DNA of 59,931 nt, taken from NCBI GenBank assembly GCA_947593355.1, contig CANQDO010000002.1:1-59931 (forward strand). Direction: 5' to 3'. Below, piece after piece: positions 38,009 to 48,584 of the stretch; the first letter of the stretch is position 1, and every line of letters begins with the position of its first letter. Source of the DNA: an uncultured Clostridia bacterium. Its GTDB lineage: Bacteria > Bacillota > Clostridia > TANB77 > CAG-508. The position numbers were made by a program, and so were the translations under genes. The notes under the pieces were generated by a model, which saw nothing but the letters and a program-made list of their open reading frames with translations, ran no database searches and had not been told where the DNA came from.

Positions 38009-38332
38009 TTATATTTTAAATAAAGACAAAACATTTTTTAATTTCTCTTCAAATTCATTTTTAGAAATAACTTTTACATTCTTGTTATCTTCCAAGTATT
38101 TTCTTATCTCTCCTTCAGTGTATATTTGTTTATTTAAAGAATATTCATATGAGATACAACGACCACTTATAAGAGTAACAATCATTAAATATTTTTTATT
38201 AGTCCATATTCCAAAATATGTACTTAAACCATCATATGGATTAGTTCCTTTTAGGAAAATATTTTTGGGATTTTCCACTTCTATTGATTTTTCTTCTTTT
38301 ACATATTTATTTTTTACATAATTAATAATCAT
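38009..38332 (-). CDS. hypothetical protein
   Basis: 107-aa ORF with gggag RBS, in the operon. Confidence 0.4.
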   Translation of the reverse strand: MIINYVKNKYVKEEKSIEVENPKNIFLKGTNPYDGLSTYFGIWTNKKYLMIVTLISGRCISYEYSLNKQIYTEGEIRKYLEDNKNVKVISKNEFEEKLKNVLSLFKI

Positions 38333-38346
38333 TTTTATCTCCCTTC

Positions 38347-39204
38347 TTATGCTACAAGTCTTTCTTCTTGTAACTCGTACTTTTCTATTTTATCTATAAA
38401 TTGATTAGCACATTTTTGTATTTTATTTCCTAAATCAATAACAACTTTTGTATCTCCTTTTGCCCATTTAATAATATAATTAAAACTACACTTTGAAGTA
38501 TCTAGTCCGAAATGATCTGCTACAATGTATGCAATAGATTCAACAAAAACTTCTGATAAATCTCTGTTAGTTTTATAATTAAAATCATCATATAAGGCAT
38601 GTGCAAGTTCATGCAGTAAAACGGCTGCTTTATCATCTACAGATAAAGTATTTTTTATTACTATATTTTTTCCTTTAGGATTATAATATCCATCTGCACC
38701 ACCTAATATTTCTTCTTCAGTAATAGGAAAATTACTAAAAGATTTTAATTTTTCATAAAAATAAGACATATCATCACTATTAAGAGTTTGATTTTGCAAT
38801 GGTATATCTTTACCTGTAGTTTGTGAAATATCATAAACATATACATATCTATAAGCATTATATTGAATTGTCTCTGTTTCTTCTATTTCTTCTCCATCTT
38901 TAATTTTCTTAACCTTTTTATCATATTCACGTGGAATAGGTGCTATAATCCATATTTTTTTAGAACCATTTATAGGACTTCTTCCCAATTTAAGCCATTT
39001 TGATTTTCCTGCTACTTGTGTAGCATCTGGAAACTGACTAAAAATTAAAATAAGATTATTAAAACTATAATTTCTAAAATTTTTTTGAAATTTTAAAAAT
39101 TTTTCATAATCTCCATCATTTATTATTTTCTGTAATTTATTTACAATATTTTCAAACATTTCTTTTGTTCTATTTGAAATACTTTTATTTAGTTTTCGAT
39201 TCAT
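38347..39204 (-). CDS. ArdC-like ssDNA-binding antirestriction protein with HExxH metalloprotease domain
   Basis: FRNYSFNNLILIFSQFPDATQVAGKSKWLKLGRSPINGSKKIWIIAPIP is an ArdC-N pattern. LLHELAHAL is a zinc-protease motif. Ends in LVA. Confidence 0.65.
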   Translation of the reverse strand: MNRKLNKSISNRTKEMFENIVNKLQKIINDGDYEKFLKFQKNFRNYSFNNLILIFSQFPDATQVAGKSKWLKLGRSPINGSKKIWIIAPIPREYDKKVKKIKDGEEIEETETIQYNAYRYVYVYDISQTTGKDIPLQNQTLNSDDMSYFYEKLKSFSNFPITEEEILGGADGYYNPKGKNIVIKNTLSVDDKAAVLLHELAHALYDDFNYKTNRDLSEVFVESIAYIVADHFGLDTSKCSFNYIIKWAKGDTKVVIDLGNKIQKCANQFIDKIEKYELQEERLVA

Positions 39205-39217
39205 ATTATTTATCCTC

Positions 39218-40786
39218 CTATGCAACAAGTTTTTCTATTTCATATCTTGTATTTTGTATTTGAACTTTTTTATGATATTTTTCTTTTTGATTTATGAATT
39301 TTCTAAAGTTAATCCATTTATCCATAAATTCTAAATGTTCAGCTGTAAAATTTGTACTATGATGTGGAAGTTCTTTCTGTACTATATTTTCATCTCTAAA
39401 TTCTATAGTAATAAAAGATTTATTAATATTTTGTAATTCTCTAATAAAAAATATTTCTGTTTCACCATTTGAATACTTATCTAAATATATACCACCTACA
39501 CAATTATCCTGCTGAATACCTTCTTCTATTATGCTATGAACACTTGGCGCTGGAAATATAATGTACTTATCATCTGAATATATATATTTTGAAAGTTCTA
39601 AAAATCTTAAGTAAGTAGGAAATTGAATATTTATATTTTCATTCATTTCGATTTTTCTTTGTAATTTATCATGTCTTGAAATTAAATTACGAGGAAATAA
39701 ATCTTTTTTTGATTTATAATTTAATGCTAATTTTTTTGACATAACAAGATAGTCTCTGTATATATTTAAGTATTTCATTCCTTTTGGATAACTATTTAAT
39801 TTATATAATGGTATAAATTCGGCAATTTCTTTTAATTTTTCTATATTTCCAATATAAATATTATTTTCATATTCTAACATGATTTCTAATATTTTATTAT
39901 CATATAAGAATTTAACATAGTTGTAATTAAATCTATAACATTCTTTAATTAAATTATAATCTTTCTTTTTAAATAATTTCAGTAATTTAAGTTCTCTATA
40001 ATTTATATCATTATCTTGCATAAATTTAAGATAATCTTTAGTTAATCCAAATCTTTTATGAAAACTACCATTTTTATTAAGTTTTTTTGCACTAAAACAT
40101 AAATTATATAATTTCATATTCCATAATAATTCAAAACTCTCATATGCTGCAAGTTCTATAGCATCAATAAAGTTGCATGGATAAAATTTTAAAGTAAACT
40201 CTTTAATTGGTGCAAATTCAAATTTAGTTCCTTTTATCATTTTGTTTTTATTAAATGGATATGTAGTATAGTCACTAAAAAATCTAATTCCATTATATTC
40301 TCTCCAATTAGCATTTTTACTACTATAATGATATATTTGCATACTACCTAAATAGAACCATACTGCATCACTTAAAAATTTACCTTTTCCTGGTATAATT
40401 CTACAATATTCTTCAACATCGTTTTCCATCTGTCTAGTTTGATAATTATAGAATGTTTCTATTTCGAATACTCTTGTAATGATATTTTTATTTATTCTTT
40501 GAACTAAATTAACTGATTTTTTAAAACTTTGTATATATCTTGCATTTTTGCTAACTACATAAATTTCTTTTTTACAATTAGGACATTTAAAATAATCTGA
40601 TATTTTTACTTTTTTATCATAAAAACTATGCTGACAATTAGTACAGTAACATTCTTTTAATTTTGTATCTTTTATAATATAATGACACATTTCCGTTTGT
40701 TTTTTTATAAATTCATTCCAGTGTTTTGGCAATTTGCATTTCTTATTAATTTCATCCATCATTGTATCAATTTCTTCTTGTTTCAT
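39218..40786 (-). CDS. PcfJ-like protein
   Basis: 522 aa. N-terminal CxxC pairs. The C-terminal IEEGIQQDNCVGGIYLDKYSNGETEIFFIRE resembles the PcfJ domain. Ends in LVA. Confidence 0.55.
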   Translation of the reverse strand: MKQEEIDTMMDEINKKCKLPKHWNEFIKKQTEMCHYIIKDTKLKECYCTNCQHSFYDKKVKISDYFKCPNCKKEIYVVSKNARYIQSFKKSVNLVQRINKNIITRVFEIETFYNYQTRQMENDVEEYCRIIPGKGKFLSDAVWFYLGSMQIYHYSSKNANWREYNGIRFFSDYTTYPFNKNKMIKGTKFEFAPIKEFTLKFYPCNFIDAIELAAYESFELLWNMKLYNLCFSAKKLNKNGSFHKRFGLTKDYLKFMQDNDINYRELKLLKLFKKKDYNLIKECYRFNYNYVKFLYDNKILEIMLEYENNIYIGNIEKLKEIAEFIPLYKLNSYPKGMKYLNIYRDYLVMSKKLALNYKSKKDLFPRNLISRHDKLQRKIEMNENINIQFPTYLRFLELSKYIYSDDKYIIFPAPSVHSIIEEGIQQDNCVGGIYLDKYSNGETEIFFIRELQNINKSFITIEFRDENIVQKELPHHSTNFTAEHLEFMDKWINFRKFINQKEKYHKKVQIQNTRYEIEKLVA

Positions 40787-46901: not shown

Positions 46902-47006
46902 TTTCTTGTCTCCTTTTTTAACTTTATTCTTTACAATTTTAAGTTCATTGTGTATAATAATAACTACGATTAAATACATAAAAAAGTAGTATAAGAAACA
47001 ATTTTT

Positions 47007-48188
47007 CTATGCTACTTTTTCCTTTATTTTTTTATCTATCATATTTATTTTTAATGCAAATATTTTATTAGACACTACTTTAGGCTCTATTTCAAAAACA
47101 GTTCCCTCTGCACAGTCTAATATTTCATTTTCATCTTCAGTTTTAATTACAACATCACATAGTTCTTCTTTTACATTAAAACTTTCAGCTATTAAATATT
47201 CTTTTGGAATACCATCTTTATTTACTATAATTTCTCTTTTTGTATTATCTAGCATATAATAGTTTTCAAATTCATTTTGTGGAGTTTGTTGTTTTCCTGT
47301 AGTTTGATTTTCTATTTTGTTATCTGTAGTTTCTACTTTTTCCTGTTTTTTCTTATCAACGCTATTTGTTGTATTTTTATTTGCATTATTTGAATTACAA
47401 GTTTGATTTCTTTGTTTTCCCTTTTTCTTTGAATTTTTTTCTGGATTAGAAATTATTTCTTTTGATGTAATTTCTGGTTTTGAACTCTCTCTTTGACCTA
47501 AATCTTCGTTATTTATATCGTTATTATTTATTGTTGTTACCTTTTCTTGATTTTCATTTATTTTTGATTCTATCGAATTTGATATAAATTCTTCTTTTTT
47601 TAAGATATCTAAAACATAATTATTGAAAATTTGTCCTAAATTGTTTGTCTGTTCAATTCGTTTTAAGAATAGAATATAATGACCTTTTATAGATTTTCCT
47701 TGAGCCTTTTGTAAATTGATATAATCAGATAATTTGTTAATTGATGTTTGACCTGTTATTTTCATAAGAAAAATACGGTCTGTGCTAATACTAGGTATTA
47801 AAAATTTAAGCCATCCTATGCGATTACAAGCACATTTTCCAGCATCATTTTTTTGTCTATACTGACAGTCCAAACCTTTACACTCGATTTGTTGCCAACC
47901 ATTTTTTACTTTTTGAGTTGCCTTACCTGAATTTTCAGGACAGCGACATACTTCGCCACTTTGATTATATCTAACATATCTTTTAGACAATGGCTCTTCG
48001 TTGAAAAATTCTATTTCAATACTTTGCTTTCCTTTGAATAATTTATCAAATTTATCAACATAAGATTGCATATAAGTATCTTGCGTTTTTACTATAAAAT
48101 AGCCATATTCTGTTATTTTGTTGTTGACTTTTTCACCGTGTTGTACTCTACCAATAATAGGTAAATTTACTAATCTTGTTTGTTCCAT
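47007..48188 (-). CDS. hypothetical protein: Cys-rich N-terminal domain, low-complexity linker and C-terminal domain
   Basis: 393-aa ORF with aaggaagg RBS. CRCPEN...IECKGLDCQYRQKNDAGKCAC cluster. Ends in KVA. Confidence 0.4.
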   Translation of the reverse strand: MEQTRLVNLPIIGRVQHGEKVNNKITEYGYFIVKTQDTYMQSYVDKFDKLFKGKQSIEIEFFNEEPLSKRYVRYNQSGEVCRCPENSGKATQKVKNGWQQIECKGLDCQYRQKNDAGKCACNRIGWLKFLIPSISTDRIFLMKITGQTSINKLSDYINLQKAQGKSIKGHYILFLKRIEQTNNLGQIFNNYVLDILKKEEFISNSIESKINENQEKVTTINNNDINNEDLGQRESSKPEITSKEIISNPEKNSKKKGKQRNQTCNSNNANKNTTNSVDKKKQEKVETTDNKIENQTTGKQQTPQNEFENYYMLDNTKREIIVNKDGIPKEYLIAESFNVKEELCDVVIKTEDENEILDCAEGTVFEIEPKVVSNKIFALKINMIDKKIKEKVA

Positions 48189-48209
48189 TTAAAAAACCTT
48201 CCTTTCTTT

Positions 48210-48584
48210 TTATGCAGCAACTAATTCTTGCATACAATATTGATTTTGTGATATTTTAGTTAAATCAATAGTATAAATAGGATAGACTGTAAAATTTACT
48301 ATACAAATTCCAACTTTTTCTTTTAGAATACCTAGTTTTTTTAACTGTGGTATTAATGTAGGTTTATATAAATAATCTACTACTATTTCATTATCTTCTA
48401 ATTTTTTTTGACTTTGTTGCAATGTTATATCTGCAAAATGAGCAGTTTCATTTGTATTCGGATCTACTCCAAATAAGCTTAACTGTAAATTTCCATTTGC
48501 ATACCTTGAAGTATGAATGAAACATCTTTTAAAAACCATTTCATACAATTCAAAATTAAAACCATTTCTCATAATAAAATACAT
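48210..48584 (-). CDS. DUF4313-like protein (first gene of the leftward operon)
   Basis: YANGNLQLSLFGVDPNTNETAHFADITL...VDYLYKPTLIPQLKKLGI fits the DUF4313 pattern. Ends in LVAA. The start could be 48584 or 48572. Confidence 0.5.
   Translation of the reverse strand: MYFIMRNGFNFELYEMVFKRCFIHTSRYANGNLQLSLFGVDPNTNETAHFADITLQQSQKKLEDNEIVVDYLYKPTLIPQLKKLGILKEKVGICIVNFTVYPIYTIDLTKISQNQYCMQELVAA

Follow-up and report, generated by a model that had tools for sequence, protein, structure and literature searches.

The window analysed here is a stretch of 59,931 nucleotides from an uncultured Clostridia bacterium (contig CANQDO010000002.1 of assembly GCA_947593355.1), and it holds an integrative conjugative element (ICE) with partly decayed-looking transfer genes. 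Within this element, a fixed subset of the DNA-processing proteins encoded by a minus-strand block of genes at 38009-48584 ends in Val-Ala or Ala-Ala directly before the stop codon. This tail is strictly terminal and family-specific, and it is conserved at the level of the peptide in two unrelated module lineages, together covering more than 100 loci. Taking the sequences, a structural model of PcfJ in which the tail is predicted to be flexible, and the analogy to published degradation signals together, I consider it on balance probable that the terminal [V/A]-Ala-COOH acts as a genome-encoded, ssrA-like degron of the ClpX C-motif-1 type. Degrons of this class are known; what appears to be new is that they are used systematically, and in a conserved way, throughout a module of mobile elements in two lineages, and a literature search on ClpX, ClpXP, or Ala-Ala degrons in connection with conjugative elements, plasmids, leading regions, and signals of type IV secretion systems (T4SS) found no account of module-wide Ala-Ala tails.

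Listing and translating the open reading frames (ORFs) of the block showed that 8/17 end in [V/A]-Ala-stop, the total being 16 if a split methyltransferase is taken as one gene. The first-pass annotation of this DNA had read all eight termini correctly: LVAA (gene at 48210), KVA (47007), QAA (44699), IAA (43403), KVA (41593), GGVA (40786), LVA (39218), and LVA (38347). It had also stated that no other ORF of the window ends this way, and indeed none of the 58 other ORFs of at least 60 aa ends in Ala, which gives a Fisher p of 1.4e-6 for the block against the rest of the window. Ala is as rare as had been claimed, making up 3.4% of the residues of the block, and at this frequency the binomial probability that eight or more of 17 ORFs end in Ala is 3e-8. 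Chance or composition as the origin of the tails was ruled out by these window statistics and the conservation in homologues. The stop codon follows the [V/A]-Ala codons directly in 8/8 window genes and in 182/199 homologues, so that the tail ends in a free alpha-carboxylate. The string G(Y)WGC(A/T)TA(A/G), noticed earlier at the DNA level, is present and equals the codons of [V/A]-Ala-stop with an AT-rich codon choice; it had been described as usually fused to the next ribosome-binding site (RBS) or start codon, and the junctions that follow are heterogeneous. Downstream of the tailed genes there may be an overlapping ATG, a spacer of 13-27 nt with an RBS, or, after the gene at 44699, a terminator-like hairpin (44690-44663).

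Conservation was evaluated starting from PcfJ. A protein search returned 120 homologues of 43-74% identity, 112 of them full-length, and 109 of these 112 end in [V/A/I]A with the consensus KY.L.K[LMI][VA]A. The PcfJ alignment was then used to fetch 32 loci from species-representative genomes, all from uncultured gut Clostridia except for two distant matches, and the synteny of the module is kept across the 30 close loci (L001-L030). All ORFs of the fetched loci were clustered, and tails were counted on unique sequences. Across eight families (the 48210 protein, Gp3-like, Rad50-like, DUF3846, the 41593 protein, PcfJ, ArdC-like, and primase-like) 182 of 199 unique sequences end in [A/V/I]A, compared with 4/233 in a background of singletons and small clusters (about 1-2%). 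The exceptions within the tailed families are mostly truncated or frameshifted ORFs. A survey of this kind had been named in the first-pass annotation as one way to check the tails, and it found strong conservation for seven of the eight proteins listed there.

Family by family, and with all genes on the minus strand, the picture is as follows. The first gene of the block (48210..48584) encodes a protein of ~120-124 aa that has no match in Pfam or NCBIfam and ends in ..QELVAA (tail codons at 48213-48221); all 22 of its unique homologues end in [A/V]A, with the consensus ..EL[IVL]AA. The Gp3-like protein (PF18897; 47007..48188; 393 aa; Pfam match 3e-12) ends in ..KEKVA, and 22/23 unique homologues carry an [A/V]A end, mostly ..K[NK][IV]AA. 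A Rad50/RecF/SMC-like P-loop ATPase with a coiled coil (44699..46693; 664 aa; weak AAA_29 and RecF/SMC/Rad50 matches) ends in ..LPQAA, with AA or VA in 24/24 unique homologues, while the DUF3846 protein (43403..43837; Pfam match 4e-8) ends in ..FNIAA and shows an [A/V]A end, typically ..IFKNAA, in 23 of 24. The 91-aa protein at 41593..41868, which has no assigned function, ends in ..QEKVA; 23 of the 26 unique members of its family end in [A/V]A, typically ..KEAA, and one more in TA. The PcfJ-like protein (39218..40786; 522 aa; Pfam PcfJ match 2e-22) ends in ..YEIEKLVA, as do in similar form ([A/V/I]A) 26/28 homologues in the fetched loci. Lastly, the ArdC-like protein (38347..39228, with a likely start at the ATG at 39204) combines an ArdC-N domain, which binds single-stranded DNA (ssDNA), with an M78/DUF6782 metallopeptidase domain according to Pfam, and ends in ..EERLVA; [A/V/I]A ends, typically ..EEQLAA, occur in 25/28 unique homologues, and the exceptions are truncated ORFs.

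Counted after the eight listed proteins, a ninth tail family lies just outside of the listed block. This primase-like gene (36866..37792, minus strand; weak DnaG zinc-finger match) has 24 unique homologues, of which 17 end in [AVI]A and three more in [TS]A, the usual end being ..TLK[NK]VA. The window copy ends in ..TLKSNKIMNYK and has lost its tail, though homologues keep ..TLKNVA; its N-terminus is also ~55 aa shorter than theirs. Downstream of this gene, an ABC-transporter cluster stands in place of the genes found in relatives.

The variation among these ends indicates the level at which selection operates. In the window lineage GCA, GCT, GCC, and GCG are all used for the terminal Ala, the residue at -2 is Ala or Val, and both TAA and TAG serve as stops, with GCA mildly in excess at the last codon (72% vs 53% internally). 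Given this variety of Ala and stop codons, it is the peptide end that is under selection and not RNA or DNA, and the tails are evidently a selected peptide feature, neither a product of chance nor a by-product of RBSs. Entropy is lowest at the two terminal positions of each C-terminal region, and positions -3 to -12 are variable. At -2, in 151 unique tails chosen for ending in Ala, there are 100 Ala, 44 Val, and seven Thr, Ile, or Ser. At -3, where a hydrophobic, Leu-like residue would favour recognition of a C-motif-1 degron, the residues K, L, I, V, E, N, and M occur: it is L, M, I, or V in PcfJ, ArdC-like, and 48210 proteins, and K, N, E, or Q in the Rad50-like, DUF3846, 41593, and primase-like families. 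Among distant PcfJ representatives (50% clusters), 38/149 end in Ala and 28/149 in [AVI]A, and sister sequences have unrelated ends; in view of this patchiness, the PcfJ tail is gained and lost in the manner of a short linear motif. The AlphaFold2 model of PcfJ has a mean pLDDT (predicted local distance difference test) of 86, and residues 511-522, which follow a long helix (482-511), fall below 50, which predicts a flexible tail. In the remaining families, accessibility is indicated solely by the variable sequence upstream of the tail.

Not every member of the block is tailed, and here one of the eight listed proteins had to be removed. The GGVA end of the PcfK-like protein (40786..41190, minus strand; Pfam PcfK match; ..QISLFGGVA) had been over-read: a VA end occurs in only 7/28 homologues, and the others end in VAQ, ALQ, VV, VG, EDDDKG, and similar residues. 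What is kept is a conserved Q[IL]SLFGG (40795-40815 in the window, minus strand) followed by 0-6 variable residues, and this protein was rejected as a member of the tail set. The core Q[IL]SLF, conserved in ~26/28 homologues, matches the beta-clamp-binding consensus QL[SD]LF as a sequence motif. NCBI gives the counterparts of PcfK-like proteins in plasmid records the name 'Cas9 inhibitor AcrIIA9 family', and the homologue on pCBG ends in ..QVSLFDF.

Likewise, the ORFs at 46713 (0/20), 43104 (S6-like, 0/24), 42719, 41882 (DUF7448), 41193 (1/26), and 38009 are untailed in relatives, as are SSB and the methyltransferase. SSB (42273..42731, minus strand; Pfam SSB match) has the canonical ..DDLPF end; 28/29 homologues end in PF, and the tail is present in 0/29. 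LPF is itself reported as a ClpX-specific degradation motif in Streptococcus mutans (PMC10782952). The DNA methyltransferase-like gene (43838..44648, minus strand), with an Ala end in 0/23 homologues, is split into two overlapping ORFs right after motif I (EPTCGAG). An identical split site, GG(T/A)-CGG-N, is found in seven diverged relatives (L006, L009, L014, L015, L016, L018, and L023), making eight loci with the window. Unsplit homologues read GGT-GGN at this site, the split copies having one extra C, and the ORF downstream of the split is intact and conserved. In these loci no Arg codon is rarer than CGG, which accounts for 1% of all Arg codons and for 0.34 per 1000 codons overall. Judged from these comparisons, the split resembles a programmed +1 frameshift (at a hungry codon) or a switch more than it resembles decay. 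The S6-like gene (43104-43388, minus strand) encodes a paralogue of ribosomal protein S6 (Pfam 6e-27), lies two genes upstream of SSB, and is kept in ~24 related loci. The arrangement of this paralogue and SSB echoes the chromosomal rpsF-ssb operon.

A second module lineage follows the same rule. The Rad50-like ATPase led to the faecal contig MT835919.1 (L037, 52% GC) and to a replicon of the cultured Subdoligranulum variabile strain TSDC17.2-1.1, OY725881.1 (L041), with the module at ~119-130 kb. AA ends are found in 5/11 co-oriented genes of the former and in 5/11 consecutive genes of the latter, and five of the seven AA-ended ORFs of the 168-kb S. variabile record fall inside a 10-kb module. 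A metagenome scan with the Rad52 of this lineage then yielded 80 loci. The second lineage has a GC content of 52-54%, and its gene order is JAB (a peptidase), ThiF (E1-like), a beta-clamp paralogue, several proteins of no assigned function, a DUF6094 methyltransferase, Prok-E2_D, Rad52, the Rad50-like ATPase, primase-like, and DUF6744, with a sigma factor and then a large serine recombinase 3' of the module. Ubiquitin-like enzymes thus sit inside a replication and recombination block with AA-ended proteins in these integrative elements of gut Clostridia (L037, L041, and L044-L124; e.g. L118:1-17000).

In this lineage, tails were counted in 261 of 333 sequences from twelve families, against 2/134 in five untailed families and 11/443 in the background. 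AA ends are universal in the beta-clamp paralogue (22/22) and in the families f208 (8/8), f111 (8/8), and f67 (6/6), and nearly so in Rad52 (53/58), f252 (28/29), and f206 (33/34, of which 31 AA and two VA). ThiF ends in AA in 26/32 cases and in TA in five more; f163 in 8/11 and three more, respectively. The remaining families are more mixed: the Rad50-like ATPase has 34/51 AA plus 16 AG, DUF6744 17/32 (16 AA, one VA) plus 14 CA, and the primase-like family 18/42 AA plus eight TA. The untailed families are E2_D (2/46), the DUF6094 methyltransferase (0/34), JAB (0/31), f93 (0/13), and f97 (0/10). AA is the dominant end, -3 is mostly K, E, R, Q, or S, and none of the four Ala codons or three stop codons is left unused. 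Only the Rad50-like ATPase and the primase-like family are common to both lineages, so the rule belongs to the modules or their hosts and not to a single protein family. That it recurs in unrelated modules points to a trans-acting reader common to both lineages. Consistent tails were absent in carriers of PcfJ, ArdC, the ATPase, or dnaN among plasmids of cultured relatives, namely Clostridium botulinum pCBG and pFWSKR40E1, Alicyclobacillus pAACI01, and Enterococcus faecalis p1207_1, and the rule is thus restricted to certain lineages and not tied to the Pfam families as such.

To my knowledge, no cytosolic factor other than ClpX is firmly established as a reader of Ala-Ala-COO-. In the ssrA tag, Ala-Ala-COO- is the key determinant that ClpX reads directly (PMC11317155). 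An unbiased screen of C-terminal pentapeptides in E. coli returned FKLVA as the top degron, with AA in 91% of the top 100 tags, dependence on ClpXP, and strong degrons essentially limited to ssrA-like ends (PMC10862746); EKLVA of the window PcfJ and ERLVA of the ArdC-like protein resemble this top hit. In the Firmicute S. mutans, where AVAA is the end of ssrA, GFP-AVAA is a ClpX substrate (PMC10782952), and in Caulobacter an encoded C-terminal Ala-Ala times the removal of CtrA, which is stabilised by DD substitution (PMC12421884). The first-pass annotation had already suggested degrons, and this interpretation gains from the conservation in homologues, the fit to published ClpX specificity, and the flexible predicted tail of PcfJ, with the PcfK tail as the part that fell away.

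I infer that ClpXP reads the tails and that a short half-life is the consequence. The degron-bearing subset would consist of PcfJ, the ArdC-like protein, the Rad50/RecF-like ATPase, DUF3846, the Gp3-like and primase-like proteins, and the two proteins of no assigned function. The axial pore of host ClpX would engage the flexible tail via its free carboxylate, and so might other proteases (Clp or FtsH) that recognise non-polar C-termini; once engaged, the protein would be unfolded and then degraded by ClpP. The presence of tailed proteins would then be limited to times of operon transcription, whether at excision, transfer, or establishment, with rapid clearance afterwards. The untailed methyltransferase, the S6-like protein, and the small proteins would persist; SSB and PcfK have C-terminal peptide motifs of other kinds.

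Several observations weigh against a degron. Position -3 is frequently occupied by polar residues or by Pro/Gly (K, E, R, Q, N, S, P), and such residues weaken AA tags in E. coli, where 39% of the AA-ending pentapeptides were weak in the screen (PMC10862746). Some families drift to AG, CA, TA, or TM ends, and a tmRNA (transfer-messenger RNA) gene was not found in the fetched loci. Furthermore, the related modules on plasmids of Alicyclobacillus, C. botulinum, and E. faecalis are tail-less, though these hosts also have ClpXP.

The tail might instead be a recognition signal for the T4SS of the element, namely for its coupling protein (T4CP); a T4SS translocation signal had also been the alternative offered by the first-pass annotation. 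In this case the tailed proteins (primase-like, ArdC-like, recombination proteins, and clamp) would leave the donor together with the DNA and be active in the recipient from the outset. In favour of this, the elements are conjugative and the window carries a T4SS pilin, VirB4 and T4CP fragments, a sortase and adhesin, an integrase, and a flanking tRNA-Met; primase, the ArdC-N domain, and the ssDNA and recombination factors resemble proteins that are co-transferred in Gram-negative systems (PMC8406263, PMC11288057). No close relatives of the modules were found in phage collections: PcfJ gave two distant matches only, DUF3846, the Rad50-like ATPase, and the Gp3-like protein gave none, and a search with Rad52 returned one IMG/VR contig, which lacks phage hallmark genes and represents the same integrative module. 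T4SS signals are typically C-terminal, and the last 20 residues of the tailed proteins are somewhat more positive (+1.3 vs +0.4). However, this charge difference is modest, conservation is limited to the last two residues, and the pattern is not that of a diffuse signal. Published signals are heterogeneous patches of charge or hydrophobicity over 20-50 residues, or internal, none of them a strictly terminal dipeptide, and they work with five extra C-terminal residues (PMC11288057), whereas the tails here are strictly terminal. The rest of the window element, T4SS components included, has no ORF with such an end, a relaxase was not identified in the window, and the lone T4CP homologue in the S. 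variabile record lies at a distance of ~80 kb from the tailed module, with no tailed genes next to it. An accessible AA-COOH end would meet ClpXP anyway, and I regard recognition by the coupling protein as unlikely. A broader version, which I rate as unlikely too, would have Ala-COOH as an export or hand-off signal of Gram-positive conjugation, with 8-12 establishment proteins (primase, ArdC, Rad52, Rad50-like, clamp, and others) injected with the DNA; the reader would be the coupling protein or a ClpX unfoldase that feeds the T4SS, and ClpXP would degrade the leftovers in the donor.

A tail that is module-wide, family-specific, and conserved could also dock these proteins onto one shared partner that is neither a protease nor a secretion ATPase, be it a carboxylate-binding (PDZ/TPR-like) hub on which a replication and recombination complex would assemble or, in the second lineage, the ThiF (E1-like), E2, and JAB enzymes of the module activating Ala-COOH. 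ThiF, Prok-E2_D, and JAB are encoded inside the second-lineage block, and other module members have C-terminal motifs for binding partners (DDLPF of SSB and, putatively, QISLFGG of PcfK). On the other hand, a dipeptide can confer hardly any binding specificity, Pfam and NCBIfam revealed no candidate reader domain in the window module, and the ThiF of the second lineage is itself tailed. The window lineage keeps its tails without E1, E2, or JAB in the module, and E1/E2 activation of the Ala ends was ruled out for this lineage on these grounds; docking in general seems improbable to me. Hardly credible is a feature of the nucleic acid or of translation, such as a recombination linker, an RBS or termination context, or mutational bias. 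The ends do adjoin downstream RBSs or starts, and there is the mild GCA excess at the last codon. Yet the tails are written with four Ala codons and three stop codons and have either Val or Ala at -2, across a lineage of 24% GC and one of 54%; the downstream junctions are heterogeneous, and untailed families with like junctions in the same operons never gain the tail. Explanations at the nucleic-acid level thus appear largely refuted by codon usage.

Compared with known systems, a degron of the proposed kind shares several properties with the ssrA tag and ClpX C-motif-1 (..LAA in E. coli, ..AVAA in S. mutans), as the AA or VA is strictly C-terminal, with a free carboxylate on a flexible tail, and LVA, LAA, and VAA variants occur here (PMC10862746, PMC11317155, PMC10782952). 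Unlike ssrA, which is added by trans-translation, the tails are encoded by the ORFs themselves and sit on many proteins of one operon, and they are often polar at -3 and lack an upstream site of the SspB adaptor type. Native degrons offer a further parallel: cleavage of LexA and RseA exposes VAA ends that lead to their removal by ClpXP. The encoded Ala-Ala of CtrA exemplifies how an encoded or exposed [V/A]AA-COOH can time removal by ClpXP (PMC12421884), and ssrA-like ends are reported for Mycobacterium tuberculosis anti-sigma factors and antitoxins (10.1101/491043, PMC8165232). Those are single regulators in host circuits, whereas here 7-12 enzymes and DNA-binding proteins of one mobile module are involved and the rule recurs in an unrelated lineage. 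Poly-alanine tailing by RqcH/RqcP in Bacillus subtilis is another case of a C-terminal Ala tail in a Firmicute that sends proteins to ClpXP (PMC8373112, PMC11317155), but it is added post-translationally to stalled nascent chains for quality control, unlike a templated dipeptide on functional proteins.

Substrate signals of T4SSs (VirB/D4, Dot/Icm, and the F-plasmid 'conjutome') are C-terminal as well, and the substrates include conjugative-element proteins of the establishment type such as SSB, PsiB, and primases. I know of no defined terminal dipeptide among them, and of nothing comparable in Gram-positive systems. They differ from the tails in being diffuse patches or internal and in tolerating appended residues (PMC11288057). 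Tags of synthetic biology (ssrA-LVA, -AAV, and -ASV) are alike in that an appended LVA or LAA speeds turnover and sharpens the temporal response of a circuit; they are engineered, while the arrangement here apparently evolved naturally and repeatedly. Finally, ubiquitin-like or E1-activated C-termini (cf. Cap2 with CD-NTase in CBASS, the cyclic-oligonucleotide-based anti-phage signalling system), for which an E1-like adenylating enzyme and an E2 are encoded alongside substrates with Gly or Ala ends, differ from the window module, which is without E1, E2, and JAB; only the second lineage has ThiF, Prok-E2_D, and JAB.

The inferred element around the module has a tRNA-Met (7043-7118) and a tyrosine integrase (57254-58501) at or near its opposite ends; before 7 kb, the window contains ordinary chromosomal genes. 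Conjugative gene content elsewhere in the window comprises VirB2-like pilins, VirB4 fragments (including a VirB4-like one at 10519-11163, plus strand), coupling protein fragments (23810-24331 and 24300-24872, plus strand), a sortase, and an adhesin. The T4SS genes at 8191-14494 and 22229-24872 (plus strand) are fragmented into numerous short ORFs that overlap, owing either to decay of the transfer machinery or to indel errors of the assembly. The tailed module is largely intact. With ArdC, SSB, a methylase, and PcfJ/PcfK, all assigned with Pfam, the gene content is of the establishment type within an element that bears a T4SS and an integrase. Neither a relaxase nor an oriT was identified in the window, and the label 'leading region' stays an assumption for this reason. 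No near-identical plasmids were found in PLSDB.

Upstream of the first module gene, a 440-bp AT-rich stretch (48585-49022) contains the short perfect palindromes ctacatattttatatgtag, ccacaaatatttgtgg, and tgttatagattttctataaca, which could be operator or ssDNA-promoter elements. The adhesin is a SpaA-repeat protein of 1659 aa (16061-21040, plus strand) that ends in ..PVLPRTGK right at the stop; its LPxTG-like sortase motif lacks the usual hydrophobic anchor and charged tail, and the sortase gene lies just upstream (14506-15087).

If the tails were recognised by the T4SS, they would be the first compact, sequence-defined translocation tag of Gram-positive conjugation, and the first simple T4SS substrate signal of its kind as well as the first for Firmicutes. 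If they are degrons, as I favour, the whole DNA-processing programme of the module would be controlled after translation: enzymes able to disturb host replication and repair would self-destruct, while the protective methyltransferase, untailed in both lineages, would persist. This would be a natural counterpart of LVA-tagging in synthetic gene circuits, and substituting AA with DD would offer a simple experimental handle on it. A rule as plain as 'ends in AA' would also predict which uncharacterised proteins join the transient programme, and the transfer of ICEs in gut Clostridia, their cost, and their host range would depend in part on the ClpXP of the host.

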